64,000 nucleotides of DNA, from assembly GCA_001779195.1 (NCBI GenBank), contig MFJL01000019.1:27192-91191 (forward strand), read 5' to 3'. Origin of the DNA: Candidatus Gottesmanbacteria bacterium RIFCSPHIGHO2_02_FULL_39_11. GTDB taxonomy: Bacteria; Patescibacteriota; Microgenomatia; 2-02-FULL-39-11. Under the pieces are notes generated by a model, which was not told where the DNA came from, did not search any database, and saw only the letters and a list, made by a program, of their open reading frames with translations. Positions within the stretch are counted from its first letter, which is position 1; every line of letters starts with the position of its first letter. Positions 7,732 to 55,310 of the stretch are shown piece by piece. The translations under genes were made by a program, and so were the position numbers.

Positions 7732-7832
7732 GATGGATCCCGGGTCAAGCCCGGGATGACAAAATATTTTTTATTGGTTTATTGGATTATTGGTACTTAT
7801 TGGTAATTGGATAATTGGGTTATTGGATAATT
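7732..7832. repeat. Composite element: GATGGATCCCGGG..CCCGGGATGAC hairpin plus a TTATTGG heptamer array
   Basis: The sequence is gatggatcccgggtcaagcccgggatgacaaa followed by ttattggtttattggattattggtacttattggtaattggataattgggttattgg. The hairpin matches those at 14940-14967 and 51163-51190. Confidence 0.6.
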
Positions 7833-7835
7833 TCC

Positions 7836-8945
7836 TTATCCTTGTACCCGTACCGGCATAATAATATGAAGAAATGTTGAAGCTGACTCACTTGACTTAA
7901 AGAGCCCCGGACTTAAGTTTCCGGATATTTCAAAAACTACATCTCCCTGTGGAAAATTATTAAGAAGATCAAGTAGAAACCGGTAATTAAAAGCAATTTC
8001 TGTCTCTTCTCCCTGAACATTTGCCTCCAAAACTTCCTCATCACCTCCAACCTGAGGAGTATTAGCAGAAAGAGTAATAGTATTTTTCCCAACTACTACT
8101 TTAACTACATTAGCAGACCCCCGGGCAAAAAGAGATGTGGTCTTAACTGCCTGAAGAAAATCATCTTTTTTTAATATCACTTTTGTTTTAAACCCTTGAG
8201 GAATAATTTTTTCAATAGTCGGAAATTCTCCATCTATAAGACGTGAGTAAATCCTCACTTGAGGAAGAGAAAAAACCACCTGATTTTTATCCTTTAATAT
8301 CGTAAATCCCACCTCATTAACTTTCATTTCCGTTGCAATCCGGCTTACTTCAGTTAAAGTAACCGCAGGAATTATACCTATAAAATCCTCGGAAAATTTA
8401 GGAATTGTGATTTTTTCAATAGAAAGCCGATATCCATCTGTTGAGGTTAAAGAAAAGGTGTCTCCTGTCGCAACAATGCGAACACCGGTTAATATAGGAC
8501 GGGCCTCATCTGTTGATGCGGCAAAAACCATCCGGGGAATAGCGGTCTTAATAACAGAGTAGGGGAGTCTTCGATCAAAAACTGTAACCTCGGGAAAGGG
8601 AGGGAAATCTTCAGGATTAGATGTTGCAAATGTGGCTTTTGTTTTCCCGCTTATAATTTTTAATTGTGTTGCCTCCTGAATAAACTCAAGTTTTTCCCCA
8701 TGAACACTTCCCACAAACTCACTAAGAATTTTTCCGGGTACTGTAATTTCTCCTTTTTCTTCAACTTTAACCGGAAGGGTAAAAACAATTCCAAGTTCCA
8801 GATCTGTTCCTGATAAAATAAGTTCTTTATCTGTTGCTTTTATAAGGATATTGGAGAGAATGGGAAGTTGAGCTCTTGTAGGAATACTTCTTCCGACAAT
8901 CCCCAGTGCTTTTAAAAATGATTCTTTCAAAACTACAAAATGCAT
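7836..8945 (-). CDS. dnaN: DNA polymerase III beta subunit (sliding clamp)
   Basis: At 369 aa it has the N-terminus MHFVVLKESFLKALGIVGRSIPTRAQLPILSNILIK typical of DnaN, and it sits directly downstream of dnaA. Confidence 0.93.
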   Translation of the reverse strand: MHFVVLKESFLKALGIVGRSIPTRAQLPILSNILIKATDKELILSGTDLELGIVFTLPVKVEEKGEITVPGKILSEFVGSVHGEKLEFIQEATQLKIISGKTKATFATSNPEDFPPFPEVTVFDRRLPYSVIKTAIPRMVFAASTDEARPILTGVRIVATGDTFSLTSTDGYRLSIEKITIPKFSEDFIGIIPAVTLTEVSRIATEMKVNEVGFTILKDKNQVVFSLPQVRIYSRLIDGEFPTIEKIIPQGFKTKVILKKDDFLQAVKTTSLFARGSANVVKVVVGKNTITLSANTPQVGGDEEVLEANVQGEETEIAFNYRFLLDLLNNFPQGDVVFEISGNLSPGLFKSSESASTFLHIIMPVRVQG

Positions 8946-9121
8946 AAGTTTTAAATAGTAGTAGTATTAGTAAGTATTGGTGATAAGTGTAAAAGTTTTA
9001 GCTTCTACAGTCAAGGAAAGGATAAATTGTGTATTTTTTATGTGCATAACCGCCTATATGTTTTGTGTATAAAAATGTGGATAAAAAAAATTTATTGTGG
9101 ATAAGTTGATAAATCAATTTT
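8946..9121. promoter_or_regulatory. Candidate oriC segment in the dnaA-dnaN intergenic region with DnaA boxes
   Basis: Two perfect TGTGGATAA (= TTATCCACA) boxes lie at 9076-9084 and 9096-9104, with AT-rich flanks and degenerate boxes (ttgataaat, ggataaatt). Confidence 0.6.
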
Positions 9122-10474
9122 TTATCCTACAAGCTTGCTTTTTATCCCCAAGATATCCTCTTGAATTTTTTGATCACTTTCAAGAAGTTTTCCGATTTTG
9201 CGGACTCCATGTAAAATGGTCGTGTGATCCCGTCCACCAAGAAGGGAACCTATATCCATAAGAGGAATTCTTGCTTCCTGTTTTAATAGATAGTAGATAA
9301 TCTGTCTGGGAAGGGCTATAGAACGGTCCCGTTTACTGCTTTTAATTTGAGAAAGTTTCAAATTGTAGTAAGAAAGGACGCAGTTTATAACATTTTGAGG
9401 AGATGTTTTTTGAGCCTCTTTCTGATCTTTTAAATCTGTTTTTAATAGTTTGGAAACAAGATCAATGGTTATAGGGGTATTATTAGTAAGTGCCTCTGCT
9501 GACAGGCGTGTAAGAACTCCCTCAAGTTTTCGAATATTGTCAACATTTGCGGCAATTAACTTGGCAACATCCATAGGAAGAATCATGGACCGTCTTTTCG
9601 CTTTAATAAGAAGTATGGCGGTTTTTAGCTCAAAATCAGGAGGAGCAATATCAATTATTAACCCTCCTTCAAAACGGGATCGCAGACGTGCTTCTAATTT
9701 TTCAATTTCCTCAGGAGGACGATCGGAAGTGAGGATAATTTGTCCTTTACCTTGTTGTACTGTATTAAATGTATGAAAGAATTCTTCCTGTACCGAGTTT
9801 TTCCCTGCGATAAATTGAATGTCATCTATAAAAAGAACATCTGCCCGACGGTATTTTTTTCTAAAATGAGGAGTTGTTTTTCCGCCAATTGCTTCAATAA
9901 TTTCGTTGGTAAACTGTTCCCCGGTACAATACATAATTTTTTTATGCTGTGAATTTGCAAATATCTGATGTCCGATTGCCTGCATAAGATGTGTTTTCCC
10001 AACACCTACTCCTCCGTATAAAAACAGGGGATTGTAGGAAGTTCCGGGGTTTTTAGCAACAGCGGTTGCTGCTGCGTATGCCATTTGATTAGATGAAGAA
10101 ACTGCAAACGTTTCAAACGTATACTCGGGATTAAACGGCAATTGCTCAGTAGGATAAGAGGAGGGGGCGTCATTAAAAGTGAGGAGAGGAAGGTCGTTTG
10201 GATTTTTTTTAATAACGGATGAAGGAGACGGTTCCATAGGAATAAAGGAAACAGAAACGGTTTCTTTTGTATACTCTTTAAGGCGAGTTGCAATTACTGT
10301 TGTATATTTTTTTTCTATGATAGATATCAAAATAGGTTTGTCGCATCCGATAATTGCCTTTTGGTGATCAAAAGAAAGAAGTTTGGTACTGGAAAAAAGA
10401 GTATGAAAAGAAGCCCGGGTTGAGGTGGTTTTTAAGTCCGCTAAAATAGTCTTCCATAAGATATCAACATCCAT
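9122..10474 (-). CDS. dnaA: Chromosomal replication initiator DnaA
   Basis: Walker A is GGVGVGKTHLMQAIG, with DDIQFIAGK, ILTSDRPPEEI and the C-terminal DNA-binding helix RQIIYYLLKQE. The ORF track starts at 10519, but the DnaA-like N-terminus MDVDILWKTIL begins at 10474 and a DnaA box sits just upstream. Confidence 0.93.
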   Translation of the reverse strand: MDVDILWKTILADLKTTSTRASFHTLFSSTKLLSFDHQKAIIGCDKPILISIIEKKYTTVIATRLKEYTKETVSVSFIPMEPSPSSVIKKNPNDLPLLTFNDAPSSYPTEQLPFNPEYTFETFAVSSSNQMAYAAATAVAKNPGTSYNPLFLYGGVGVGKTHLMQAIGHQIFANSQHKKIMYCTGEQFTNEIIEAIGGKTTPHFRKKYRRADVLFIDDIQFIAGKNSVQEEFFHTFNTVQQGKGQIILTSDRPPEEIEKLEARLRSRFEGGLIIDIAPPDFELKTAILLIKAKRRSMILPMDVAKLIAANVDNIRKLEGVLTRLSAEALTNNTPITIDLVSKLLKTDLKDQKEAQKTSPQNVINCVLSYYNLKLSQIKSSKRDRSIALPRQIIYYLLKQEARIPLMDIGSLLGGRDHTTILHGVRKIGKLLESDQKIQEDILGIKSKLVG

Positions 10475-10568
10475 AAGTGAGTTATCCACAATCCTAAAAT
10501 GACCGGACGTCAGCGTCAAGGGAGAGTTACTGGTACTAACTATATGAATATGGTAAAATCCATTTATT
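10475..10568. promoter_or_regulatory. Divergent dnaA/rpmH promoter region with a DnaA box
   Basis: TTATCCACA lies at 10483-10491, immediately upstream of the proposed dnaA start. Confidence 0.55.
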
Positions 10569-10706
10569 ATGCCGAAACGGACATTTCAACCCAAAAAAAG
10601 AAAAGCAAAAAAAATCCATGGATTTTTCAAACGGATTGGTACGGTATCAGGAAGAAAAGTTTTAAAAGCCAGACGGTTAAAGGGAAGAAAGAGACTGAGT
10701 AAGTAA
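10569..10706 (+). CDS. rpmH: 50S ribosomal protein L34
   Basis: The 45-aa translation [45 protein letters not shown] is the classic L34 sequence. It is not in the ORF track because it is short and in another frame from ORF 10499-10702. Confidence 0.9.
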
Positions 10707-10818
10707 TCTAATAACCCAATAAACCAATTTCCAATAACCCAATAAATGTAAAATGTATTAGTTTTTAAATGTGAATGTTTATTGGTAGTATTGGGTTACC
10801 TGTCTGCCGACAGACAGG
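10707..10818. repeat. Inverted heptamer arrays (CCAATAA ... TTATTGG) flanking a perfect 9-bp-stem palindrome
   Basis: The sequence is aataacccaataaaccaatttccaataacccaataaatg ... ttattggtagtattgggtt acctgtctgccgacagacaggt tggtacttattgggttatt. Confidence 0.55.
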
Positions 10819-10845
10819 TTGGTACTTATTGGGTTATTTTCTCCT

Positions 10846-11208: not shown

Positions 11209-11209
11209 T

Positions 11210-11437: not shown

Positions 11438-11452
11438 TAAATTGTATCCCTG

Positions 11453-11520
11453 TGTCATGCTGAATTTATTTCAGCATCTATCTTCTAATAATTAAAAAGA
11501 TCCTGAAACAAGTTCAGGAT
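11453..11520. repeat. Hairpin repeat element (GTCATGCTGAATTTATTTCAGCATC ... ATCCTGAAACAAGTTCAGGAT) downstream of yidD
   Basis: It is the inverse orientation of the elements at 46965-47021 and 47726-47806. Confidence 0.6.
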
Positions 11521-11556
11521 AACAATAGATAAGTATTTAATAGCTCACCTAAACAT

Positions 11557-12823: not shown

Positions 12824-12824
12824 A

Positions 12825-14108
12825 GTGAAGCTCAATTGGCTTCCCTATCTTCTTTTTATTCTTCTTCCAACTCAACTTGGTAAATATTTTTTTCTTCCTG
12901 CAGCTTATATAAGCGGACTTAGAAGTGATTATTTAGCCATTTCATTTTACTTAACTGATATTATTTCAGCTTTAATAATTCTGGGATATTTTCTTAGGGT
13001 TAATCGTCACCCTGAACTTGTTTCAGGGTCTGTATTAATAAAGATGCTGAAACGAGTTCAGCATGACAAACACTTGTCTTTTTCTCCCTTTCTCTTTTTC
13101 TCCCTTTCTCTTTTTCTCTATTTATTCCTTTCTTCTCTTTTTATATCTGTAAATCCAATCATTTCTCTTTTTAAACTATTGAAGCTTCTTGAAATAGGTT
13201 TGCTTTGTTTTGTTCTTATCAGGTTAAGGCCGGATATTTCCAAAATTATTTTATCAATTTCCATAGGGGCTTTTTACTCTTCTGTTCTTGCCATTCTTCA
13301 ATTTATAAAAGGAGGGTCTTTAAATGGACTGTGGTGGTTTTTAGGGGAAAGGACGTTTACCGTGACAACTCCCGGAATTGCCGCATTTTCTTTAAACGGA
13401 ATGAGATTTTTGCGTCCCTATGCCGCTTTTCCCCATCCGAATGTTTTGGCGGGATTTTTGGCAATAAGTTCTTTAAGTATTATTTGGTACTTAAGATATA
13501 AAAAACCTCTTTCAAAAAAAGTATTTTATTATTTTGCGGGAGTTTTGGTTTTCGGTCTGATTGCTCTTATATTAACCGCAAGCCGAAACGCAATATTTGC
13601 CTATGCAATTGGTATCTTACTTCTTCTAAAGCCGGTTAAATTTGACGGAAAAAGCGTAATTGCGTTTTTTACATGCGTACTTATTTCAATTTTTATTCCA
13701 CTTTTTATATCAATTCCGAACGAAAGTATTCTGGAGCGCAAAGCGCTTATTAAGAAATCTTTTGATATTATCCAAAGTTCGGGAGTATTGGGCGTCGGGC
13801 TAAACGGGTTTATACAAATTCCAAATAACACCATGCATTTTATGGGAGTTGGTGCATATCAGCCGGTTCATAATGTTTTTCTTCTTATCTTAGCTGAAAC
13901 CGGAATGGTCGGTGTGTTTCTTTTTCTGGTTATTGTCCATCTCATCTTTTGCGATTATAAACTATCTTTTGTCTCTTTTTCTCCTGTCCTCTTTTCTCTT
14001 TTTCTCCTGTCTTTATTTGATCACTATCTATTTACCCTCCAGGAAGGGATGCTTATAACCGTTTCAGTCATCTCTCTTGCCTTTTTAGCTCGAAAAAAAT
14101 ACACTTAA
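12825..14108 (+). CDS. O-antigen ligase family (Wzy_C domain) polytopic membrane protein
   Basis: Multiple TM helices are present. HNVFLLILAETGMVGVF is the H-N...E.G Wzy_C motif, and GERTFTVTTPGIAAFSLNG is also typical. The start is uncertain: the ORF track starts at a TTG/ATG at 12756 that overlaps jag, and an in-frame GTG at 12825 follows the jag stop. Confidence 0.7.
   Translation: MKLNWLPYLLFILLPTQLGKYFFLPAAYISGLRSDYLAISFYLTDIISALIILGYFLRVNRHPELVSGSVLIKMLKRVQHDKHLSFSPFLFFSLSLFLYLFLSSLFISVNPIISLFKLLKLLEIGLLCFVLIRLRPDISKIILSISIGAFYSSVLAILQFIKGGSLNGLWWFLGERTFTVTTPGIAAFSLNGMRFLRPYAAFPHPNVLAGFLAISSLSIIWYLRYKKPLSKKVFYYFAGVLVFGLIALILTASRNAIFAYAIGILLLLKPVKFDGKSVIAFFTCVLISIFIPLFISIPNESILERKALIKKSFDIIQSSGVLGVGLNGFIQIPNNTMHFMGVGAYQPVHNVFLLILAETGMVGVFLFLVIVHLIFCDYKLSFVSFSPVLFSLFLLSLFDHYLFTLQEGMLITVSVISLAFLARKKYT
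13005..13067. repeat. Hairpin repeat copy embedded in frame within the O-antigen ligase CDS
   Basis: cgtcaccctgaacttgtttcagggtctgtattaataaagatgctgaaacgagttcagcatgac is homologous to the intergenic elements at 46965-47021. It encodes the loop HPELVSGSVLIKMLKRVQHDKHL. Confidence 0.6.
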
Positions 14109-14889: not shown

Positions 14890-14890
14890 A

Positions 14891-14967
14891 TATCCAATCA
14901 TCTAATCAACCAATTATCCAATAAATACCAATAAGGTTTGTCATCCCGACAAAAGTCGGGATCCATC
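14891..14967. repeat. Composite element: CCAATAA array plus GTCATCCCGAC..GTCGGGATCCATC hairpin
   Basis: atccaatcatctaatcaaccaattatccaataaataccaataagg followed by gtcatcccgacaaaagtcgggatccatc. It mirrors the element at 7732-7832. Confidence 0.6.
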
Positions 14968-14974: not shown

Positions 14975-15754
14975 ATGGATCTTACAATTGATAGCAAGTT
15001 AATATACGAAAAAATAATCAAATTCATTTCTTCTTCTTTTAAAAAATCCGGTTTTTCTCAAGCAGTTATTGGCCTATCAGGTGGGATTGACTCTGCTGTA
15101 TCTTTAACTTTGGCAGCTCAAGCGTTGGAAAAAGAAAATATTTACCCTTATATTCTTCCCTTTGGAGATTTAAACTCAATAGGAGTAGAGGATGCAAAAT
15201 TATTGATTAACCATTTAACCATTCCCTTTGACCATTTAACCATAATTAATATTAAGCCTTTAGTTGATCCTATCATTTCATTAGATAACTCAATTGATGA
15301 TATACGGAAAGGAAACATTATGGCCCGGATGCGGATGATCCTTCTTATGGACGCTGCCAAAAAAAGAAACGCACTTGTTGTGGGGACTGAAAATAAGACA
15401 GAGCATGTTTTGGGGTACTATACACGCTTTGGAGATGAAGCGTCCGATGTAGAGCCGATACAGAGTCTTTACAAGACTCAGGTGAGAGAGCTTGCAACAT
15501 ATCTGGGAATTCCGAAAAAAATTATTGCTGCCTCCCCCACCGCAGGGTTGTGGGAGGGTCAGACGGATGAAGGGGAATTTGGATTTACCTACGAAGAGGC
15601 GGATCAGATTTTGTATTTGAAATTTGAGAAACATTTATCTGAAGAAGAAATAGTGAAAAAGAGATTTAAGAGGGAGGTAGTGGGGAAAGTGCTAGGACGG
15701 GTTAAGGTAAATGAATTTAAAAAAAATCTCCCGATGGTTTTTATCACTGAATGA
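14975..15754 (+). CDS. nadE: NH3-dependent NAD+ synthetase
   Basis: The PP-loop GLSGGIDSAV is present, with TENKTEHVLGYYTRFGD. The ORF track start at 14969 is a TTG, and the first ATG is at 14975. Confidence 0.88.
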   Translation: MDLTIDSKLIYEKIIKFISSSFKKSGFSQAVIGLSGGIDSAVSLTLAAQALEKENIYPYILPFGDLNSIGVEDAKLLINHLTIPFDHLTIINIKPLVDPIISLDNSIDDIRKGNIMARMRMILLMDAAKKRNALVVGTENKTEHVLGYYTRFGDEASDVEPIQSLYKTQVRELATYLGIPKKIIAASPTAGLWEGQTDEGEFGFTYEEADQILYLKFEKHLSEEEIVKKRFKREVVGKVLGRVKVNEFKKNLPMVFITE

Positions 15755-16190
15755 CTGTTATCTTCTCATTTTTAGACAGAGGGTTAAAATCATTATCAAA
15801 TGTGGCTATTGCAAAAACTTTATTTTGTTTCATGCATTCCAAATGAAAAGCGTCTCGGGGTCTTAAATTATAAGTTTTTATTGAATCTAAAATATTTATA
15901 AGCGAATCTTCGCTATTTTCAAACTCAATTAGCCGTGTCGTATTCCAGGAAAGAACTGCTTGTACTGTTTTAGATAATATAGAAGCAAAAGAACCAAAGG
16001 AATTATCATTTTTTTCACCTCTTAAGAGAAAAACAATCCCATACAAAAATTCATCCATCGTTAAGGCAGATATCAAAAGAAACGCATTCTCTGACCATAA
16101 ATTGTCAATAATTTTTTTCGCTCTCTCGTGAAATTCGTGACCAGAAACCTGATGGGCAATGAGAATATTAGCGTCCAAATATACTTTTTT
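15744..16190 (-). CDS. vapC: PIN-domain toxin VapC
   Basis: The PIN N-terminus is MIKKVYLDANILIA, with acidic residues ...ATFDNDF. Confidence 0.72.
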   Translation of the reverse strand, partial: KKVYLDANILIAHQVSGHEFHERAKKIIDNLWSENAFLLISALTMDEFLYGIVFLLRGEKNDNSFGSFASILSKTVQAVLSWNTTRLIEFENSEDSLINILDSIKTYNLRPRDAFHLECMKQNKVFAIATFDNDFNPLSKNEKITVIQ

Positions 16191-16455
16191 TATCATAAGG
16201 ATTTTTAATAGCGTCAAAGACTTTCTCAATAGGCATTGATTTTGACATTTGAATAGTTCCTGCTGTTTTAGAGGGAGGGAGTTTAGAGGCGACTTGGGAT
16301 GAAGTTTGTTTTCCTAATACATTAAATTGTATGCTTTCCACAACGATTTCATTCATGGTACGTTTTTCTTTTAAAGCTCTTTTTTTTATGATAAATAACA
16401 AATCTTCAGGCAGAGTGACAGTAGTGCGTATCATCGGTGTATTCATATCTATCAT
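16168..16455 (-). CDS. vapB: RHH-type antitoxin VapB
   Basis: TTVTLPEDLLFIIKKRALKEKRTMNEIVVESI is a ribbon-helix-helix motif. It overlaps the vapC start and is paralogous to ORF 16839-17126. Confidence 0.6.
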   Translation of the reverse strand: MIDMNTPMIRTTVTLPEDLLFIIKKRALKEKRTMNEIVVESIQFNVLGKQTSSQVASKLPPSKTAGTIQMSKSMPIEKVFDAIKNPYDKKSIFGR

Positions 16456-16838: not shown

Positions 16839-17126
16839 ATGATAAATCCTACTGTTAGAACTACTGTCGATCTTCCAGAAGATTTGATCTTTGCTATAAA
16901 GCAGAAAGCTCTTAATGAAAAAAAATCTCTAAAATATATTATTTACCAAGCGCTTACAACCTATATGAAATATAAAGAACCGATTACATCTACTACTTCT
17001 GTTCTTTCACTTTTCGGTGCCTGGGGAAAAGGAGAGAAAGGGATAGACTTTCTTAAAAGAGTAAGATACTCTCCCCTTGAGAAAGAACGGGAAGAACATC
17101 TTGAAAAACAATGGAAAAAATCCTAA
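16839..17126 (+). CDS. vapB: RHH-type antitoxin VapB (second copy)
   Basis: TTVDLPEDLIFAIKQKALNEKKS is nearly the same motif as in the first antitoxin. It overlaps the downstream PIN gene. Confidence 0.6.
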   Translation: MINPTVRTTVDLPEDLIFAIKQKALNEKKSLKYIIYQALTTYMKYKEPITSTTSVLSLFGAWGKGEKGIDFLKRVRYSPLEKEREEHLEKQWKKS

Positions 17127-17494
17127 TTGACTCCGATGTGCTCATTGATTTTCTCCGAGGTTATACCCTTCGCATCAAAGATGTTTTTTCACGGATCGAG
17201 AAGAAAGAACTGGATGCGTATATATCGACAATAACTGTCTCAGAGCTCTACAGCGGGCAAGATGTAGTAAGTGAGAAAGGGAAATCAGAACTTAGAAAGT
17301 TATTATCCATTTTCAAAAAAATATCCATAGATGAAAAAATAGCAGAAGAAGCCGGGGATATTCGAAGAAGCCATCGTGTAGGTTTATCCGATGCTTTAAT
17401 TGCAAGCACGGCTCTTTCTCTTACCGCCAAGCTCTTGACCTTTAACAAAAAACATTTTCAACATATTCAGGAACTGACGTTCTTTTCTATTTAA
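17111..17494 (+). CDS. vapC: PIN-domain toxin VapC (second copy)
   Basis: MEKILIDSDVLIDFLRG ... LSDALIASTAL is a PIN fold. Confidence 0.72.
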   Translation: MEKILIDSDVLIDFLRGYTLRIKDVFSRIEKKELDAYISTITVSELYSGQDVVSEKGKSELRKLLSIFKKISIDEKIAEEAGDIRRSHRVGLSDALIASTALSLTAKLLTFNKKHFQHIQELTFFSI

Positions 17495-28865: not shown

Positions 28866-29056
28866 ACAAAATAAATAGTTATCCTCTTATAAGCTCAGAA
28901 GGGTTAAAAAAAGCTGCCGAGGATTTTAAGAAAGACCTGATCATGGGTCTTTCCAACCAAACCTCTTCCCTTCCCATGATTTTAAACCCTATTCATAGAA
29001 TTCCTGCTCATCCAGGAAGCGGGGTTGCTGTTTCAATCGGATCTTTCAGTTTTTAA
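28862..29056 (+). pseudogene. Hexokinase N-terminal gene fragment (duplicate of the 5' end of gene 30488-31708)
   Basis: The 64-aa ORF has a core DFKKDLIMGLSNQTSSLPMILNPI identical to hexokinase residues 24-47, with ~75 bp about 93% identical at the nucleotide level. It is truncated exactly where the AbiE cassette begins. Confidence 0.6.
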
Positions 29057-29816
29057 CGAGGCTAGCTCTCAAATAGGAAGTGATATAGGAGAATAGCCTG
29101 GGAAGATCGTGCCTTTCTTTTATCGGGACAAAGGGTTGTAAATCACGTACGAAATCTTTCTCTGTAAATTTTCCGAGAGATTTTTCAAGAGGATCTTTTC
29201 CATCCAGTTCTAAACCATAGTATTTCAATTTTTTCTGAATCATCCGCATAGTAGGGTTTATTCCTAGAGTCGACAAATACCAAAGATCATAAAGATCGCG
29301 GCCTTTTTTTCGAGAAGTAAGCGCTCGAATCTTCTCTGCAAACAGTTCCTCTTTTGACAGATGATGAATATAGGAAGTAAATAAAACGGGATAGTCTGTC
29401 TCTATGATAGATTTTTCTTTAATAAGAACTTTTTCGCGAAATGAGAAATCGAGATTGATGAAAATATCATATGGCATGACTCCAGGCTTTAGAGTAAGAA
29501 GGAATCGTTTCCCCGTGATTGTTTTTCTTTCTTTAAACCCTATCGTTTCCTGCTGGGATAACTTTTTAACCGTATCTCTTATAAGAACTAAAAAATCTTT
29601 CTCATCCATATTGACAGTAAAATCCAGATCTTCTGAAAACCGCGGAGCTTTGTAGATCAGGTGAATTGCGGTTCCTCCCTTAAAAAAGATCGATGAACTT
29701 TTCTTTTGCTGATACAGCATACTTAAAAATAAAATTTGAAGATATTCCCGAAGAATGACTGATTGAGTGATATTGAGTTTTTTTGAAAGTAAAGTTAGTT
29801 GGCTAGTCGTAATCAT
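29046..29816 (-). CDS. AbiEii/AbiGii nucleotidyltransferase toxin (DUF1814)
   Basis: FFKGGTAIHLIYKAPRFSEDLDFTV is the AbiEii signature GGTAL...R.SEDLDF. Confidence 0.8.
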   Translation of the reverse strand: MITTSQLTLLSKKLNITQSVILREYLQILFLSMLYQQKKSSSIFFKGGTAIHLIYKAPRFSEDLDFTVNMDEKDFLVLIRDTVKKLSQQETIGFKERKTITGKRFLLTLKPGVMPYDIFINLDFSFREKVLIKEKSIIETDYPVLFTSYIHHLSKEELFAEKIRALTSRKKGRDLYDLWYLSTLGINPTMRMIQKKLKYYGLELDGKDPLEKSLGKFTEKDFVRDLQPFVPIKERHDLPRLFSYITSYLRASLVKN

Positions 29817-36074: not shown

Positions 36075-36100
36075 TAACACGACTACTTATGTAGTAAGCC

Positions 36101-36217
36101 GTCATCCCGCACTTGTTTACCCTGTAAGGGATGCGGGATCCAGAAGTCAAAACACTGGATTCCGGGTCTCGAAACAATCCTTACGGATTTTCCGAGTAAA
36201 CAAGCCCGGAATGACAA
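36101..36217. repeat. Compound hairpin repeat element downstream of the GH63 gene
   Basis: cgtcatcccgcac...gggatgcgggatcc followed by tggattccgggtc...aagcccggaatgacaatg has the same two-hairpin architecture as 51163-51259 and 55216-55310. Confidence 0.6.
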
Positions 36218-43522: not shown

Positions 43523-43939
43523 TTAAGTTTGGACAGCCGAGGGAATGTTAAAGTTGAAAATGTTCGGAACTCCCAGGAAGTTAGCAACTAAATTGAATAT
43601 TGCGTAAGCTGCAAAGACCAACAGAAGTCCCAAAAGTGCAGCCTGGATTTTATTCCGTGCCGACTCAATATTTCCTTTGTCTCCTCCTGAGGTGATCCAC
43701 TGAAATCCTCCCCAGAGAAGATAGACAAAGGCGATAAGTCCCGCTAAAAAGAGGAATAAGGAAAGAAGGCTTCCAATAAGTTTTCCTAAATCTAGGATTC
43801 TTAGTTCCGGAGGTGGAGGGATATTAATTGATCCCGAGGGGAAGGGTGTGTTGGATTGAGCGTGAACTCCTGGGACAACAATTCCGGACGTAACTGCAAT
43901 TGTTAATGTTGTGATAGCAGAGGACAAAGTTTTCTTCAT
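43523..43939 (-). CDS. T4SS pilin-like protein (VirB2/TrbC-like), paralog 1
   Basis: A signal peptide precedes a TM helix, the motif FQWITSGGDKGNIESARNKIQAALLGL and a second TM helix. Confidence 0.5.
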   Translation of the reverse strand: MKKTLSSAITTLTIAVTSGIVVPGVHAQSNTPFPSGSINIPPPPELRILDLGKLIGSLLSLFLFLAGLIAFVYLLWGGFQWITSGGDKGNIESARNKIQAALLGLLLVFAAYAIFNLVANFLGVPNIFNFNIPSAVQT

Positions 43940-44014
43940 ATATAAACAGATTAGGAGGATTTTTTTCTCTTGTCAAGAGATAAAAAAGTACTGAGGTAAA
44001 ACTTGCCCCAGTCT

Positions 44015-44341
44015 TCACTGAGTCGGGATTCTGAAAATAGTAATGGGAACCCCTGTGAAATACTCAATCAGTTTAAATATAAGGTACGCCCCAGCCATCA
44101 GAGCAATTCCGATAATCGCGTATGTCAGCGTCGATTTTGCAGATGCTACAGCTTTGGGGTCTCCTCCGGCTGTCAGGAACTTAAACCCTCCGACTAGAAA
44201 CATCACAAATAGAGCCAAAGCTGCAAGACTTACGGCAACCACCAAAATATTTGAGAATACAATCTCAAGGCATTTAATAGTCGGGACTTCTACCTCTCCA
44301 ACCTTTAACAAACATCCCGGAACATCATTCCAATTTTTCAT
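44015..44341 (-). CDS. T4SS pilin-like protein, paralog 2
   Basis: FKFLTAGGDPKAVASAKSTLTYAIIGI lies between two TM helices. Confidence 0.5.
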   Translation of the reverse strand: MKNWNDVPGCLLKVGEVEVPTIKCLEIVFSNILVVAVSLAALALFVMFLVGGFKFLTAGGDPKAVASAKSTLTYAIIGIALMAGAYLIFKLIEYFTGVPITIFRIPTQ

Positions 44342-44347
44342 AATGGT

Positions 44348-44689
44348 TTAAAAGAGTTTAGGAAGATTCAGATTTACTCCATCTCCGCTTGTAAGTCCCA
44401 GAAATTTTAAAAGGACAAGATATATTGACCACGAAGCAACCAGAATGATAAGCCCGATGATGGACTGCAAGATCCGTTCCCTGGCCTCCATCACTTTCCC
44501 TTTATCTCCTCCTGAGGTGATCCACTCCAGTCCTCCCCGAAGAAGCTGAAACAATGTCCAGATTGCTCCTAAGAATAAAATTATTCCCACCAGAGCTGAA
44601 AAAAACTTTCCAAAAGCAGCTGCGGAGCTTGCTTGGTCACAGTTAAGCCCGATTATAGCTGTATTACAAACAGGAGTTATGTTTGGCAT
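44348..44689 (-). CDS. T4SS pilin-like protein, paralog 3
   Basis: LEWITSGGDKGKVMEARERILQSIIGL lies between two TM helices. Confidence 0.5.
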   Translation of the reverse strand: MPNITPVCNTAIIGLNCDQASSAAAFGKFFSALVGIILFLGAIWTLFQLLRGGLEWITSGGDKGKVMEARERILQSIIGLIILVASWSIYLVLLKFLGLTSGDGVNLNLPKLF

Positions 44690-44693
44690 AGCA

Positions 44694-45182
44694 TCAGATT
44701 ACTAATTTTATTATAGCTTCTCCGGGATTAAAAATATTAAGCCCGAAAATATTTCCAACCAGTCCTACAAAGATATAGGAGACAACCACAATAAGAAGCC
44801 CAATCACCGCGTGAAGCATGCGCAGGCGCGCGATTTCCAAAAGCCCTTTATCAGCTCCGGCTGAGATCCACTGAAATCCTCCTATTATAAATTGTATTAA
44901 AAACCACAATCCTGCAATGATCGTTATAAATGAGATAATTCCGCTGACAAGCTGATTTAAGGAGTTTGCAACCTGAGTATTTTGATCAGTAGTATTGTTA
45001 GAATTTAAGATTCCGCAAATAATGTTTCCAATTGGGCCCATCCCTCCTCCGCATCCTATACCTTGGGTATTTGGTCCTGCTGGAGTTTGTGCAAAAGCTT
45101 TTGGAATCCCAATCAAATGAACTAAGCCGACAAAAAAAATAATAATTAAAGCAGAAATAATAATATTTAAGTATTTACTCAT
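44694..45182 (-). CDS. T4SS pilin-like protein, paralog 4
   Basis: FQWISAGADKGLLEIARLRMLHAVIGL lies between two TM helices, with an N-terminal signal peptide. Confidence 0.5.
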   Translation of the reverse strand: MSKYLNIIISALIIIFFVGLVHLIGIPKAFAQTPAGPNTQGIGCGGGMGPIGNIICGILNSNNTTDQNTQVANSLNQLVSGIISFITIIAGLWFLIQFIIGGFQWISAGADKGLLEIARLRMLHAVIGLLIVVVSYIFVGLVGNIFGLNIFNPGEAIIKLVI

Positions 45183-45619
45183 GGTGTTGGTGTAATAGTA
45201 GGATTAAGAATTGCGGTAACATTTCCATACAGAACAAGCCCGATAATTGCAGCTACCAGAAATGATGCCACAATGATAATAAGTCCTACCAGGGACTGCC
45301 AGATACGTGTCCAGGCTGATGCAACCTTTTTGCTATCCCCGGAAGCGCTCATAAAATCAAATCCGGCTATAATAAAATTTAAAAAAGTCCACAAGCCGGC
45401 AACGATAAAAATAATCCGAAGAACCAGGTTCATCAGAATGACAACTGCGGTAAGTTGTCCCGTATCACTAATTGGGGGTGTTGAGAAAAGTCCGCCGAAT
45501 CCGGTGGGATTGATTGTCCCAATCGGATCTCCCTGAGCGTAGACAGGAGTAGAAAGCGAAAGGGAGAAAGAGAGAAGAAGCGAAAAAAAAATAATTGTTA
45601 TAGATGACAAACGATTCAT
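45179..45619 (-). CDS. T4SS pilin-like protein, paralog 5
   Basis: FDFMSASGDSKKVASAWTRIWQSLVGL, with an N-terminal signal peptide ending in the AQG cleavage context. Confidence 0.5.
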   Translation of the reverse strand: MNRLSSITIIFFSLLLSFSLSLSTPVYAQGDPIGTINPTGFGGLFSTPPISDTGQLTAVVILMNLVLRIIFIVAGLWTFLNFIIAGFDFMSASGDSKKVASAWTRIWQSLVGLIIIVASFLVAAIIGLVLYGNVTAILNPTITPTP

Positions 45620-45969
45620 CCGAATACTCCTCCAAAAGGTTTTCCTGTAAGGTTATTTATTATCTGAAGTATCCAGAGGGAGGCAAACATAATAATGAGT
45701 CCTATCACCGCATATGTCAGAATCATTTTTCTGCTCTCCGATGCATGAGGGTCTCCTCCGGCATTTGAGATCACTCCAAATCCCGCAATAACTACGATAA
45801 AAAAGCACAAAATGCCGCCGGCAAGTAAAAATAGGGGAACAAAAAAAGACACAAATCCCCCGATTGAACCAAAAGCCGGATTTTTCGCGATAGGAAAAAT
45901 TTTTCCGATATCTACTCCACCTGTAGGCATTCTAAATTTAGAATAAGGGGGAACAGGGAGGTTTGTCAA
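45616..45969 (-). CDS. T4SS pilin-like protein, paralog 6
   Basis: FGVISNAGGDPHASESRKMILTYAVIGL. The start may be at the internal Met (MPTGG). Confidence 0.45.
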   Translation of the reverse strand: MTNLPVPPYSKFRMPTGGVDIGKIFPIAKNPAFGSIGGFVSFFVPLFLLAGGILCFFIVVIAGFGVISNAGGDPHASESRKMILTYAVIGLIIMFASLWILQIINNLTGKPFGGVFG

Positions 45970-46795: not shown

Positions 46796-46964
46796 TTGGG
46801 AAGTGGGAAATTAGATATGTGACGTGAGATGTTGATATTCTCGAAATTGGATGTTCATGAATTTGGTTACTTGGTATCAAGAATTCAAGATTTCAAAAAT
46901 TCTAGATCAAAAGTATCTAACTTCCAACTTCAAGATATCTCATGCTAGAAGTCATCTCTAAACT

Positions 46965-47021
46965 GTCATCCTGAACTTGTTTCAGGATCTTCTGAAGATG
47001 CTGAAATAAATTCAGCATGAC
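46965..47021. repeat. Hairpin repeat element (GTCATCCTGAACTTGTTTCAGGATC ... GATGCTGAAATAAATTCAGCATGAC)
   Basis: Two consecutive stem-loops. The element is nearly identical to 47726-47806 and is the inverse of 11453-11520. Confidence 0.6.
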
Positions 47022-47085
47022 GCAGACGCGGAGGTTTCGAGACTACTTCTAACTTCTTACAGTCACTTCCCACTTCATAATTACT

Positions 47086-47715: not shown

Positions 47716-47725
47716 AAATTGCTCT

Positions 47726-47806
47726 GTCATCCTGAACTTGTTTCAGAGCCTGTCCTGAATTCGGTTCAGGAATCTTCTGAAGATGCTGAAATAAATTCAG
47801 CATGAC
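47726..47806. repeat. Hairpin repeat element, three stem-loops
   Basis: gtcatcctgaacttgtttcagagcctgtcctgaattcggttcaggaatcttctgaagatgctgaaataaattcagcatgac. Confidence 0.6.
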
Positions 47807-47815
47807 GATCAAGCT

Positions 47816-50018: not shown

Positions 50019-51161
50019 ATGACACCTGTAAGAATTTTATCAGGAGCGGTGAGTAAATTCGGAGAACTTTGGGATGTGTCTCCCCGTGATTTAGTAAAAG
50101 AAGTTGTTCAGAAGGCATTAACTGAAGCAGGTCTAACCACCTCATCAATTGACGGTGTGTTTGTGGGAAATATGCTTGCCGGAACTTTGGGCAATCAGGA
50201 TCATTTGGGAGCTTTTTTTAGTGAAGAGTTGGGTATTTTTAGAGGATCCATTAGCGTTGAGGGAGCATGTGCCTCCGGAGGTTTGGCTGTTCATAGCGGT
50301 GTAATGGCTATTCTTTCCGAGTTATATCACCATGTTTTGGTAATTGGTGTTGAAAAAATGACAGATCATAAGCCTGAAGATGTTGCCAAAGGCCTCATGG
50401 GTGCAGGCTCCTCAGCAGAACGGGAATCAGGGGCGACTTTTCCCAGTCTGTATGCGCTTATGGCTGTTGCCCATATGGAGAAATACGGAACAACCGAGGA
50501 ACAGATGGCCGCAGTATCCGTCAAAAACCATTTTCATGCGAGTTTAAACCCCAATGCTCAGTTTCATACTCCTATAACCATTGAACAGGTGATGAAAAGT
50601 TCATGTATCGCCTCCCCCCTCAAACTTCTGGATTGCTCTCCTATAACAGATGGAGCAGCAGCGATTATCTTATCGAAAAACAAAACGAAAAACGAGATAA
50701 GTATTATTGCTTCCTCTGTTGAAACAGATACATTAGGAGTTGCAGAGAGGGAAAGTTTGACCAGTCTTGCCTCATCAGTACATGCTTCAAAAGAAGCATA
50801 TGCACAGGCTGGTATTAAACCTTCCGATATTGATGTAGCTGAAGTTCATGATTGCTTTTCAATTGCGGAAATACTGGCGATGGAAGACCTCGGTTTTTTT
50901 CAAAAAGGTGAAGCAGCAGAGGCAATTTTTGAGGGGAAAACGAAACTAGGATCCAAAAAACTTGTGGTAAATACCTCCGGAGGTTTAAAAGCATCCGGTC
51001 ATCCGGTGGGTGCAACCGGAGTTAAGCAGATAGTTGAGATTTATGAGCAGCTTAAAGGAAAAGCAGGAAAACGGCAGGTAGATGGTGCAAAGATAGGACT
51101 TACCCATAATGTCGGAGGATCAGGAGCAACGGCGGTTATACATATTTTAAGGAGAAATTAA
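50019..51161 (+). CDS. Acetyl-CoA acetyltransferase (thiolase, archaeal-type)
   Basis: The thiolase active-site region is VEGACASGGLAVH, with C-terminal GATG and NVGGSGA motifs. Confidence 0.85.
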   Translation: MTPVRILSGAVSKFGELWDVSPRDLVKEVVQKALTEAGLTTSSIDGVFVGNMLAGTLGNQDHLGAFFSEELGIFRGSISVEGACASGGLAVHSGVMAILSELYHHVLVIGVEKMTDHKPEDVAKGLMGAGSSAERESGATFPSLYALMAVAHMEKYGTTEEQMAAVSVKNHFHASLNPNAQFHTPITIEQVMKSSCIASPLKLLDCSPITDGAAAIILSKNKTKNEISIIASSVETDTLGVAERESLTSLASSVHASKEAYAQAGIKPSDIDVAEVHDCFSIAEILAMEDLGFFQKGEAAEAIFEGKTKLGSKKLVVNTSGGLKASGHPVGATGVKQIVEIYEQLKGKAGKRQVDGAKIGLTHNVGGSGATAVIHILRRN

Positions 51162-51162
51162 C

Positions 51163-51259
51163 GTCATCCCGGGCTTGACCCGGGATCCATTCCTTATGGT
51201 GTGTGGATTCCCGCCTTCCCTAAAAAGCGAACTTTTCAGGGTAAACGCGGGAATGACAA
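51163..51259. repeat. Compound hairpin repeat element downstream of the thiolase
   Basis: gtcatcccgggcttgacccgggatccat followed by tggattcccgcc...gcgggaatgacaaa. The first hairpin is identical to the one at 7732-7761. Confidence 0.6.
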
Positions 51260-51651: not shown

Positions 51652-51661
51652 TTTATTGTTT

Positions 51662-52621: not shown

Positions 52622-53534
52622 GATTACGGTTACCGTTTGCGGAAAAGTGATGCTTCTGGGAGAGCACAGTGTAGTTTATGGAGGATTGTGTCTTGCAAGT
52701 GTTGTTAATAAATACATAACCGTAACTGTTGCTCGGAGTAGTACCAATACAGATGAACTTTTTCTTCCTGACAAAACAGGAGATCAATTTATCCTATCCT
52801 CACTTAATTCTTTTCGGAATTCTTATAAAACCCCTCCGTTATTAATTCGTACCACATCTGATATCACCGGATTCGGATTGGGGTCATCATCTGCTGTTGT
52901 CATAGGAATTGTAAAGGGAATTTCTTCTTTTTTATCCCTGAATCTTTCAGATAGGGAAATCTTTGATATATCCTACCGTGCAGTTCTGGGAGTCCAAAAA
53001 GTTGCCTCAGGATTTGACATAGCTACGTCTTTATACGGAGGGACCATTTTATTTAACGGAAAAACAAAAGTTGCAGAAATACTTTCAAAAGAAAATTTAC
53101 CAATAAGTGTTTTTTTCAGCGGAAAAAAAGCAAGCACGGTTTCATTAGTTAAAAAAGTAAGAAATGTCCATGAAAAGAACCCGCAAAAGCTAAAAGATTT
53201 TTTTGGAAAAATTGAAGAATGTGTGACCGATGCAAAAATTGCTCTTATAAAAAAAGATTGGGAAAAATTGGGAATGGCTATGAACAAAAACCATTCCATA
53301 TTAAAACGTATGGGAGTAAGTACTCCCTATCTTGATTGCATCGTACAGACGGCTCAAGAGAGGGGGGCATACGGAGCGAAACTATCAGGTGCCGGAGGAG
53401 GGGATTGTGTGATTGTTCTTACACCTACTGATCAAAAAGATAAAATTATTTCATCTCTTGAGGCAATTGGAGTAAAACACCTTAATATTTCAGTAGGAGG
53501 GAGTGAGGGTGTTAGAATAAGTACATTACTATGA
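52611..53534 (+). CDS. GHMP kinase, probable phosphomevalonate kinase
   Basis: VCGKVMLLGEHSVVYGG and GFGLGSSSAVVIG are present. It sits between mvk and mvaD, as in Gram-positive mvaK1-mvaD-mvaK2 clusters. Confidence 0.6.
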   Translation: MENKITVTVCGKVMLLGEHSVVYGGLCLASVVNKYITVTVARSSTNTDELFLPDKTGDQFILSSLNSFRNSYKTPPLLIRTTSDITGFGLGSSSAVVIGIVKGISSFLSLNLSDREIFDISYRAVLGVQKVASGFDIATSLYGGTILFNGKTKVAEILSKENLPISVFFSGKKASTVSLVKKVRNVHEKNPQKLKDFFGKIEECVTDAKIALIKKDWEKLGMAMNKNHSILKRMGVSTPYLDCIVQTAQERGAYGAKLSGAGGGDCVIVLTPTDQKDKIISSLEAIGVKHLNISVGGSEGVRISTLL

Positions 53535-54496
53535 AACAAACTGCAGTTGCCTGTTCCAACATCGCATTTATCAAATTCTTCGGAAAAAAAGATGAGATGC
53601 TTCGCATCCCCATGAACAGTTCAATTTCCATGAACTTAAAGAATGCTACAAGCACGACAACGGTTGAATTTTCAGAAGAGGTTCACACGGATAGTATCAA
53701 TATGACAGATAGAGAAAAAGAAAGAATTGTCACCCATCTAGACCGGATAAGAAAGATTGCGAAAATTTCCCTGAAAGCAAAAGTAGTCACTGAAAACAAT
53801 TTTCCCAAAGGTAGCGGAATTGCCTCATCTGCATCCGGATTTGCAGCACTTACTGTTGCTGCGACAAAAGCGTTAGATTTAAATTTATCGGAAAAAGAAC
53901 TCGGTATGTTATCTAGAGTTGCTTCAGGGTCTGCATGCAGGTCAATCCCCACAGGATTTGTAAAATGGGAAAAAGGAACAAAAAATGATGATTCTTATGC
54001 ATTTTCCTTATATCCCCCCTCCTACTGGAATTTAAAAGATGCAGTCGTTATTGTCGATCGAAATCAAAAACCCATAAGTACATCTAAAGCTCATGGATTA
54101 TCCTGCACCAGTCCTTTTCTTAGTAAACGTTTTGAGGGAATGGATGAAAAAATAAAAGAATGTGAAGGTGCTTTAGCAAAAAAAGATTTTGAAAGATTAG
54201 GAGAACTGATCGAAAGTGAGGCTTTAAATATGCATGCGGTTATGATGACTGCACATCCATCCATATTTTATTTCCGACCCGGAAGTATTTCTGTTATGGA
54301 AACGGTATGGAAACTTAGAAAAGAGGGAATACAAGCATATTTTACTCTGGATGCGGGACCAACGGTGCATGTAATTTATGAAGGTAAGGAAGAGGATCGA
54401 ATTTTGCCGGTTCTTAAGAAATTAGAAAGTGCAAAAGAGATTATTGTAAGCGAAGTTGGAGAGGGAGCAAAAATTATCTCAGACCATCTTTTTTAA
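53531..54496 (+). CDS. mvaD: Diphosphomevalonate decarboxylase
   Basis: SNIAFIKFFGKKD and GSGIASSASGFAALTVAA are present, with the SGSACRS catalytic region. Confidence 0.85.
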   Translation: MKQTAVACSNIAFIKFFGKKDEMLRIPMNSSISMNLKNATSTTTVEFSEEVHTDSINMTDREKERIVTHLDRIRKIAKISLKAKVVTENNFPKGSGIASSASGFAALTVAATKALDLNLSEKELGMLSRVASGSACRSIPTGFVKWEKGTKNDDSYAFSLYPPSYWNLKDAVVIVDRNQKPISTSKAHGLSCTSPFLSKRFEGMDEKIKECEGALAKKDFERLGELIESEALNMHAVMMTAHPSIFYFRPGSISVMETVWKLRKEGIQAYFTLDAGPTVHVIYEGKEEDRILPVLKKLESAKEIIVSEVGEGAKIISDHLF

Positions 54497-55207
54497 ATGA
54501 AAAAAGTAAAAATACAAAATATTCCTAAACATGTAGCTTTTATAATGGACGGAAATAGAAGGTGGGCAAGAGAACGTAAGCTCCCACTTCTTCAGGGACA
54601 TAAAAATGGAGAAGATAGAATTGAACCTTTAGTTGACATGGCAATTGAATATCATATTCCTTATCTTACTTTTTGGGCTTTTTCAACAGAAAACTGGAAG
54701 AGATCTCCTGAGGAAGTTGGCTATCTTTTGAGTTTATATAAGAGAAATTTGGACAAAACCGTGGATGTATTTCGTAAAAAAAATGTACAAGTTAAAGTGA
54801 TTGGAGATTTAAATAAATTCCCTAGAGACTTACAGCAAAAAACAGCCAGATGGATAGAACTGACCAAAAAGAATAAAAGTATTACCGTAATCCTTGCATT
54901 AAGCTACGGAGGAAGAGATGAGATAATTCGTGCTGTGAATAAAATATTAAATAACAAAAAACAAATAACAAATAACATAAAAATTACAAAAGAAGATTTA
55001 GAGAAAAACCTAGATACAGCGGGAATTCCTGATCCAGATCTCATGATTAGAACAGGTGGAGAGAGACGACTTTCAGGCTATCTTCTTTGGCAAATGGAGT
55101 ATGCCGAGTTTTATTTTACGGAAAAATACTGGCCAGAATTCACACCTGAAGAATTTGTCAAAGCCCTACAGGATTATTCAGAACGGATAAGAAGGTTTGG
55201 GAGGTGA
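54497..55207 (+). CDS. uppS: Undecaprenyl diphosphate synthase (cis-prenyltransferase)
   Basis: HVAFIMDGNRRWA and GGRDEI are present, with the C-terminal RTGGERRLSGYLLWQ. Confidence 0.9.
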   Translation: MKKVKIQNIPKHVAFIMDGNRRWARERKLPLLQGHKNGEDRIEPLVDMAIEYHIPYLTFWAFSTENWKRSPEEVGYLLSLYKRNLDKTVDVFRKKNVQVKVIGDLNKFPRDLQQKTARWIELTKKNKSITVILALSYGGRDEIIRAVNKILNNKKQITNNIKITKEDLEKNLDTAGIPDPDLMIRTGGERRLSGYLLWQMEYAEFYFTEKYWPEFTPEEFVKALQDYSERIRRFGR

Positions 55208-55215
55208 CGTGAAGC

Positions 55216-55310
55216 GTCATCCTGAGCGACCCGAGCTTATCGAGGGGAGTCGAAGGATCCCAAACGGAATCTAGACATAAACGGGATTCTTCGCTAAGCT
55301 CAGAATGACA
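55216..55310. repeat. Compound hairpin repeat element downstream of uppS
   Basis: gcgtcatcctgagcgacccgagcttatcgaggggagtcgaaggatcc followed by ggaatc...gggattcttcgctaagctcagaatgacaatg. Confidence 0.6.

Follow-up and report, generated by a model that had tools for sequence, protein, structure and literature searches.

We analyzed a 64,000-nucleotide stretch of DNA (hereafter the window) from Candidatus Gottesmanbacteria bacterium RIFCSPHIGHO2_02_FULL_39_11 (contig MFJL01000019.1, positions 27,192 to 91,191), a very small, uncultured bacterium from groundwater that belongs to the Candidate Phyla Radiation (CPR, Patescibacteria). The thiolase of the window shows 100% identity to a Candidatus Gottesmanbacteria bacterium RIFCSPHIGHO2_02_FULL_3x protein (locus tag A3D77_01595), which identifies the host as a CPR bacterium. 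The window contains a family of short hairpin elements with an unpaired GTC head. These elements belong to the CGTC-tagged superfamily of repetitive extragenic palindromes (REPs), a kind of repeat that was described in 2013 and whose partner enzyme was identified in 2025. We consider it probable that they are CGTC-tagged REPs of the sort also called Ssn-related motifs (SRM), that their inverted doublets are gene-less derivatives comparable to miniature inverted-repeat transposable elements (MITEs), and that they are recent arrivals in this Gottesmanbacteria lineage. Judging from the genes that such units flank in other genomes, their partner enzyme is likely to be a GIY-YIG nuclease specific for single-stranded DNA (Ssn) and not a classical transposase. 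New aspects are the CPR host, a CTGAA class of units outside the published motif pattern, the comparison of filled with empty sites, and an insertion in frame within a gene.

Hairpin units in the window

The window holds nine loci with a total of 17–18 hairpin units. A first-pass annotation, made from the letters alone, had listed nine intervals and spoken of at least ten copies. Hairpins are present in all nine, with coordinates accurate to 1–3 nt, and the list proves complete; the count, however, should read nine loci and 17–18 units. The completeness of the list follows from a covariance model of the unit, built from 45 distinct units and run over the whole window with filters off: its significant matches are confined to the nine loci, and the next-best match (E=0.19) lies within the recQ gene. 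Reading of the individual units confirms the annotated occurrence of both orientations.

Each unit consists of (C/T)GTC, an 8-bp stem beginning with A-T (or A-C), a loop, the complementary arm and a C; TGTCATCCTGAACTTGTTTCAGGATCTT, CGTCATGCTGAATTTATTTCAGCATCTT, CGTCATCCCGGGCTTGACCCGGGATCCAT and TGTCATCCCGACAAAAGTCGGGATCCAT are examples. The loop usually measures 4–5 nt and is long in some units. Short loops are found in 10 window units and long structured loops in about 5, and structured loops of 20–40 nt occur in five units (within 36099-36217, 51205-51259 and 55214-55311). A perfect 8-bp stem, an intact head and the 3' C are retained together in nine units; in all nine of these clean units GTC and the 3' C are invariant and the base before GTC is C or T. 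The tail after the stem is CTT, CTC or CTA in the CTGAA units, and the consensus CCA in the CCCGGG and CCCGAC units.

The elements are clearly in excess of chance. GTCATCC occurs 13 times in the window compared with 5.4 ± 2.0 in dinucleotide shuffles, and none of 100 shuffles reaches 13. Perfect hairpins of at least 7 bp anchored at GTCA number 18, against a mean of 2.9 and a maximum of 6 in 30 shuffles, and 14 of the 18 are members of the family. Folded as DNA, the elements have z-scores of -3 to -7. A search of the window against Rfam at gathering thresholds returned two tRNAs only, and no RNA family at the elements.

Seven of the nine loci have an inverted arrangement in which the GTCAT heads point outward; one of the seven is an array of three units and the others are doublets. 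The two arms of these loci differ from each other in all seven cases, and the differences are compensated within each arm, as with C:G versus G:C at stem position 3. Doublets can also form a single long hairpin. No target-site duplication or common target sequence was seen at the seven doublets. The remaining two loci are singletons (7733-7762 and 14938-14966). Both carry an alignable CCAAT-repeat tract with a period of about 8 nt on the 5' side of the GTCAT head, a feature absent from the first-pass annotation, and both are therefore parts of a longer composite repeat of about 85–110 nt. The heads of the two singletons lie on the inferred lagging-strand template, with oriC placed near 9.05 kb; with n=2 this is suggestive and is not relied upon.

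The elements had been annotated as placed immediately after stop codons. Eight loci are intergenic, seven of which start 0–24 nt past a stop codon and one at 167 nt; the doublet at 13005-13067 is not intergenic. Spacers in this type of genome are very short (0–25 nt), which accounts for the proximity to stop codons: an insertion that leaves genes intact finds no other place.

The doublet at 13005-13067, 63 nt long, is inserted in frame in a gene of the Wzy_C (O-antigen-ligase-like) family, where it encodes RHPELVSGSVLIKMLKRVQHD. To its left and right, protein sequence conserved in the Wzy_C family is encoded in one and the same frame, and the closest homologue (71% identity) has 16 fewer residues exactly at the variable loop that contains the doublet. 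The doublet is therefore translated as RHPELVSGSVLIKMLKRVQHD. Rickettsia palindromic elements (RPEs), two of which, RPE-4 and RPE-6, are CGTC repeats (Di Nocera 2013), likewise add a peptide segment to proteins by in-frame insertion. They differ from the present case in that just one of the nine window copies is intragenic, and in that the host here is not a Rickettsia but a CPR bacterium that is free-living or episymbiotic. Within the same coding sequence, 8 nt past the doublet, we also observed a perfect 16-nt tandem repeat (TCTTTTTCTCCCTTTC, 2.6 copies, 13077-13133).

The CGTC-tagged family and Ssn-type nucleases

CGTC-tagged REPs comprise the families CGTC-1 to CGTC-4; members of the superfamily are dRS3/NTS of Neisseria and RPE-4 and RPE-6 of Rickettsia (Di Nocera, De Gregorio & Rocco 2013, BMC Genomics 14:522). 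They are defined by a CGTC or TGTC head, a stem of 8–9 bp starting with AT, a loop of 4–5 nt and a short tail; they are mostly dimers, and were stated to 'apparently lack a dedicated transposase', with a tyrosine transposase flanked by CGTC units found in no species (Di Nocera 2013). The window elements share the head, stem and loop, the inverted heterodimers, the occasional intragenic copy and the lack of an adjacent transposase; the short tail corresponds in the CCCGGG and CCCGAC units, which have CCA. They differ in their CPR host, the five phyla of the original description being Proteobacteria, Chlorobi, Bacteroidetes, Spirochaetes and Thermotogae, in the tails of the CTGAA units, which are not CCA, and in the long structured loops of several units. 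We collected statistics over 272 units, comprising those of the window and those of loci fetched from elsewhere. Their head is (C/T)GTC in 251 cases (C before GTC in 142, T in 109), the base following the stem is C in 260, an 8-bp stem is combined with a 5-nt loop in 240, and the commonest tail is CCA (71 units).

The exact 25-mer GTCATSCTGAAYTYRTTTCAGSATC is present in at least 120 genome contigs in a search of one genome per species, with about 12 phyla among the matches listed. These hosts include Bacteroidota (many of them Pedobacter), Sphingomonadales and other Alphaproteobacteria including a Rickettsia endosymbiont, Spirochaetota, Nitrospirota, Ignavibacteriota, Melainabacteria, Bacillota, Elusimicrobiota, Campylobacterota, 13 CPR lineages and one metagenome-assembled genome labeled Nanoarchaeota. 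The doublet architecture recurs at these loci amid unrelated flanking DNA. CGTC-REP/Ssn motifs thus reach CPR bacteria, where the 25-nt sequence is essentially identical to that found in Bacteroidota, Alphaproteobacteria and Spirochaetes. The contig binned as Nanoarchaeota (L026) is 3.8 kb long, and mis-binning is possible. The 25-mer is also found in 94 viral or proviral contigs of IMG/VR (L135-L228), one of which encodes an Ssn-type protein (L227:541-834); viral contigs with such units are a possible route of spread between phyla.

The enzymatic context of such motifs comes from Neisseria, where the NTS (CGTCATTCCCGCG...CGCGGGAATC) has been generalized to Ssn-related motifs (Chenal et al. 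2025, Nat Commun 16:2388). A motif lies near 71% of ssn homologues, and on both sides of 42% (Chenal 2025, Nat Commun 16:2388). SsnA recognizes the hairpin solely in single-stranded DNA, binding neither the double-stranded form nor RNA, and its cut falls a few nucleotides upstream. The three bases preceding the palindrome on the 5' side are important for cleavage, and the C that follows it is important for binding (Chenal 2025). The NTS-ssnA-NTS layout was likened to an insertion sequence, in analogy to REPs and their associated tyrosine transposases (RAYTs) (Chenal 2025). The window units share with these motifs the conservation of the GTC head and the 3' C. The Ssn system is characterized by motifs on both sides of single-domain GIY-YIG genes of about 95 codons, in an insertion-sequence-like order of motif, gene and motif; the window copies, in contrast, are doublets without a gene, and most of their units (the CTGAA class) fall outside the published degenerate pattern.

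We clustered the open reading frames (ORFs) across the 120 listed loci, and the sole small family found beside the units is a GIY-YIG protein of about 100 amino acids. No other neighbor was enriched; the clusters of ABC transporters and histidine kinases are generic. Ssn-type GIY-YIG ORFs lie between or beside inverted units in four of four cases among the listed genome loci, and the order at the four is GTCAY-hairpin, gene, hairpin-RTGAC. The association was retested on 80 independent metagenomic Ssn-type loci, retrieved with the four proteins in aligned form. Within 300 bp of the gene, 51 of 76 loci have units upstream, 54 of 73 have them downstream and 41 of 69 have them on both flanks. Their density is 3.9 per kb near the gene and 0.07 per kb beyond 600 bp, with matches to the covariance model concentrated just before the start and just after the stop of the gene. 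Heads-out arrangements prevail, and the most frequent stems are ATGCTGAA, ATCCTGAA and the ATCCCTGAA-like ACCCTGAA, the same types as in the window. In six of the eight stem pairs both partners have changed in a compensating manner. Pairing extends to 99.8% of cells, a fraction inflated by the fitting of the alignment to the model. A search of the PDB returned no sequence relative of the Ssn-type proteins.

Stem position 3 shows a trend in which the unit upstream of ssn is C-type and the downstream unit is G-type. Each of the four CTGAA doublets of the window, as well as the doublet on a second contig of the same sample (L129), combines one C-type with one G-type unit, which is how a deletion derivative that has kept both ends would be expected to look. 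MITEs are defined by terminal inverted repeats, a target-site duplication and a related autonomous element; inverted ends are present in the doublets, related gene-bearing elements exist in other genomes, and no target-site duplication is visible. The first-pass annotation had proposed a REP- or MITE-like family spread by a transposase acting in trans. The class was well chosen, in view of the CGTC REP definition, the motifs flanking ssn and the empty orthologous sites described below, while a classical transposase is an unlikely partner.

Evidence for gain in the lineage and competing explanations

Elements of the window occupy four junctions, among those compared, that are empty in related Gottesmanbacteria. 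The thiolase and DUF35 genes overlap or nearly abut in relatives with thiolases 86%, 78% and 72% identical to that of the window, whereas the spacer in the window is 107 nt long and is occupied by an element of 98 nt; this site is empty in four related loci (L124, L125, L126, L127). The site of the array between the Yip1 and HMG-CoA reductase genes (47724..47808) is empty in L124, and that of the doublet between the anti-sigma and Yip1 genes (46963..47023) in L127. The nadD and nadE genes abut in L128 (TAAATG) with no spacer, and are 85 nt apart in the window. The covariance model found no units in about 52 kb of related Gottesmanbacteria. As empty sites are found in relatives at 86% thiolase identity, the burst was recent. 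On the second contig of the same sample (L129) a doublet lies between thyA and folA. Assemblies of near-identical strains hold the same thiolase element, and one contig breaks exactly there. Together, the filled and empty sites and the in-frame insertion are circumstantial evidence that the gene-less doublets were gained as units.

On the reading that we favor, a unit in single-stranded DNA would fold into an 8-bp hairpin bracketed by the unpaired 5' (C/T)GTC and the 3' C, and these bracketing bases would be those that direct binding and upstream cleavage by Ssn-family GIY-YIG endonucleases in Neisseria. The heads-out inverted pair that flanks ssn elsewhere would be present in the window doublets minus the gene, making them non-autonomous. 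Copies would survive only where they are harmless, in tiny intergenic spacers and, once, in frame within a variable loop of a membrane protein. An Ssn-type enzyme would be, or would have been, encoded in this genome, and together with host replication or repair it might copy the elements; they might also affect the metabolism of single-stranded DNA, for example the processing of incoming or lagging-strand DNA. More tentatively, the CTGAA doublets could be active non-autonomous single-stranded DNA elements, with ATCCTGAA or ACCCTGAA as left ends and ATGCTGAA as right end, copied in trans via Ssn-type cleavage; we regard this as possible but doubtful. If it is true, the CTGAA doublets and an Ssn-type enzyme would make up a GIY-YIG counterpart of REP doublets forming hairpins (REPINs) and RAYTs, able to insert in frame into genes and to spread across phyla, among them CPR bacteria and possibly DPANN archaea and phages.

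A number of observations weigh against the assignment to the Ssn system and against mobility. Ssn cuts single-stranded DNA and modulates transformation in Neisseria, and mobilization of repeats by Ssn has never been shown (Chenal 2025). The published SRM pattern, HGTCWYN(0-2)YYVSBRHN(0-5)WNVSBRGN(0-2)RNCYNB, matches just two window units (7733-7761 and 51162-51190), against 0.08 expected in shuffles. Among units beside ssn genes it matches 15 of 176 and misses 161, and is therefore too narrow as a membership test; the CTGAA class is accordingly one that we would call SRM from its association with ssn genes and not from the published pattern. Ssn-type genes were found neither in the 64-kb window nor in about 25 kb of this organism's other contigs (about 90 kb in all). 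This includes the second contig, and about 8.6 kb added beyond one end of the window contains neither units nor ssn. With neither an ssn gene nor a transposase in these 90 kb, mobilization in trans is something that we infer for this organism. The sole GIY-YIG gene of the window (57015-57294) is frameshifted, and is of the UPF0213 type and not of the Ssn type. Intergenic DNA has diverged too far in the relatives for the empty sites to define a target-site duplication or a clean excision footprint. With respect to work on Ssn, the filled and empty sites and the in-frame copy bear on mobilization, and the published pattern misses the commonest motif class beside one large Ssn clade.

The hairpins could instead be intrinsic transcription terminators or stabilizers of mRNA 3' ends that are retained for this purpose, as had been suggested in the first-pass annotation. 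REPs of E. coli do stabilize upstream mRNA, and the window hairpins are strong (z = -4 to -7), with eight loci just downstream of stop codons. Most units, however, lack a T-tract. A lax terminator rule requiring a T-rich tail in the correct orientation is passed by just two units out of about 17, the one that follows dnaN (7757-7737, -) and the one that follows yidD (11457-11477, +). None of the 10 units in 35.5-55.5 kb passes it, and two further matches lie on the wrong strand. Overall, terminator-like sites show no enrichment (22 compared with 18.8, and 21 compared with 19.6, in shuffles). Moreover, several copies separate genes whose counterparts in relatives overlap or adjoin (thiolase/DUF35, nadD/nadE and Yip1/HMG-CoA reductase, with thyA/folA on the second contig), and one is translated in frame; transcription has to pass through the copies in tight operons and the one in a coding sequence. 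Termination has no need of an unpaired GTC head and a 3' C, both of which are conserved, and SsnA does not bind its motif as RNA (Chenal 2025). G-U pairs fill 3 of 1056 cells, a weak point given that the alignment was fitted to the model. We find the proposed role poorly supported and retention for an RNA-level function unlikely, while the RNA hairpins may have incidental effects.

An idea close to the preferred one is that the elements are inert relics, the enzyme of the burst having since been lost, and that they persist passively with neither function nor mobility. It overlaps with our explanation and differs from it on present-day activity only. Such a scenario was proposed for CGTC repeats in general (Di Nocera 2013), and it fits both the lack of ssn in about 90 kb and the decayed copies, namely the GTTAT head at 11520-11525, the broken arm at 47724-47752, the headless hairpin at 47753-47775 and the long-loop variants. 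The nine units with perfect stem, intact head and 3' C, and the recency of the burst implied by empty sites at 86% thiolase identity, speak against complete inertness, which we hold to be improbable, about as much as retention for RNA-level function.

Two further proposals concern the enzyme. UPF0213-type GIY-YIG nucleases of this organism might stand in for a canonical Ssn, acting in trans on the units. They are members of the same superfamily and share 38–41% identity with the Ssn-type seeds in an N-terminal stretch of about 65 residues; at least two genes are present in this genome (the frameshifted 57015-57294 and an intact paralogue, L129:7156-7434), and an upstream leader hairpin has an ATCCCG/CGGGAT stem. 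Yet these genes lack flanking CGTC units in six of six contexts, they follow tRNA-Ser genes in a position conserved in relatives without units, and their proteins match PDB entries 1ZG2 and 1YWL, which the Ssn-type seeds do not. This makes the proposal quite unlikely. Least plausible, and in our view very improbable, is that the units are mobilized by a RAYT (a Y1 transposase of the IS200/IS605 type) whose gene lies in another part of the genome. Classical REPs, bacterial interspersed mosaic elements (BIMEs) and REPINs reportedly have a GTAG head and an HUH/Y1 transposase. The window elements resemble them in being short headed hairpins with an unpaired tetranucleotide, in their intergenic position and in the inverted doublets that can fold as one long hairpin, and the Ssn motif family shares with them the recognition of single-stranded DNA by a dedicated enzyme whose gene the repeats flank. 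Their head, however, is CGTC or TGTC and not GTAG, their associated enzyme is a GIY-YIG nuclease and not an HUH/Y1 transposase, no window ORF contains a Y1_Tnp or other transposase domain, and Ssn-type GIY-YIG is the sole protein family found enriched beside the units. In addition, no CGTC-flanked tyrosine transposase was found in any species (Di Nocera 2013).

Element coordinates and neighboring features

The table lists the elements and their contexts. For annotation, the elements explain spurious small ORFs and contig breaks at these sites.

Table. Hairpin elements of the window and associated features, with scores of the covariance model
Feature	Position	Strand	Context and remarks	Score (bits)
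Singleton unit TGTCATCCCGGGCTTGACCCGGGATCCAT	7733..7762	-	between hypothetical gene (+) and dnaN (-); matches published SRM pattern; DNA fold -9.3 kcal/mol, z = -4.4	39.9
CCAAT/ATTGG tract, 8-nt period	7763..7832	-	adjoins head of singleton 7733..7762; from tandem repeat finder; alignable with tract 5' of unit at 14938	
Left doublet unit, stem ATGCTGAA	11452..11481	+	14 nt past yidD stop (yidD identity from Pfam)	41.5
Right doublet unit, stem ATCCTGAA	11496..11525	-	31 nt ahead of yidC start; head decayed to GTTAT (11520-11525)	38
Doublet, ACCCTGAA on + / ATGCTGAA on -	13004..13069	+	in frame in Wzy_C gene	43.6 and 43.1
CCAAT-repeat tract	14890..14937	+	5' of singleton 14938; begins directly after nadD stop	
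Singleton unit TGTCATCCCGACAAAAGTCGGGATCCAT	14938..14966	+	8 nt ahead of nadE ATG	25
Doublet, two long-loop units	36099-36143 and 36155-36217	+ and -	between GH63-like and pfkB genes; 36099..36217 folded as DNA: -25.9 kcal/mol, z = -4.8	29.7, 27.0
Doublet, ATCCTGAA on + / ATGCTGAA on -, spacer TTCTGAA	46963..47023	+	upstream of Yip1 gene	45.9, 40.9
Three-unit array	47724..47808	+	between Yip1 and HMG-CoA reductase genes	19.8, 17.1, 42.5
Array part with decayed 3' arm	47724-47752	+		
Array part, headless hairpin	47753-47775			
Array part	47779-47808	-		
Doublet, short unit and long-loop unit	51161..51259 (51161-51190 and 51205-51259)	+ and -	from base after thiolase stop to 9 nt before DUF35 ATG; short unit matches SRM pattern	39.6 (short unit)
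Imperfect palindrome of ~97 nt, ends CGTCATCCTGAGCG... / ...CTCAGAATGACA	55214..55311	+	between uppS and comF-like gene; the two arms pair with each other (DNA fold)	16.8 (right arm)
UPF0213-type gene with leader	56928-57340 in the window; L129:7080-7434; L133:9924-10261; L315:2912-3282			
Long-arm tRNA-Ser, anticodon ACU (A at position 34), from ARAGORN	56840-56927 in the window; L133:9836-9923; L315:2822-2911			

The window holds the replication origin region, with dnaN, dnaA, a cluster of DnaA boxes and the minimum of the GC skew. The likely oriC spans 8946-9121, and four DnaA boxes (two of them perfect, TTATCCACA) at 9041-9104, between dnaN and dnaA, coincide with the cumulative GC-skew minimum. 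Other contents are a mevalonate-pathway operon, genes of sugar metabolism and type-IV-secretion-like genes. The last group (2124-6099 and 43523-45969) comprises PrgI-like, TraC-like and VirB4/TraG P-loop genes and a run of genes with pilin domains of type IV secretion systems, and may have a bearing on how this CPR bacterium takes up or transfers DNA.

The GIY-YIG remnant at 57015-57294 was considered as a candidate Ssn and rejected, being of the UPF0213 type (1ZG2, 1YWL) with no CGTC flanks in six contexts. It lies directly 3' of a tRNA-Ser gene, behind a two-hairpin leader (56928-57014, z = -8) whose stems covary between organisms by compensating substitutions (ATCCCG/CGGGAT, ATTGC/GCAAT, ATCGC/GCGAT); the second leader hairpin is repeated downstream of the gene (57285-57322). 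UPF0213-type genes adjoin tRNA-Ser in five of six CPR contexts. The tRNA-Ser(ACU) is kept in three CPR organisms, always near tRNA-Ser(GCU) and always followed by the GIY-YIG gene; a serine tRNA with A34 is unusual for bacteria. The ORF at 56509-56838 between the two tRNAs, considered as a possible nuclease, is a HepT toxin with an MNT partner, and the MNT/HepT toxin-antitoxin pair (56222-56838) forms an insertion that separates tRNA-Ser(GCU) from tRNA-Ser(ACU). Further toxin genes of the window encode PIN-domain proteins (15744-16229 and 17111-17494) and AbiEii (29046-29816).

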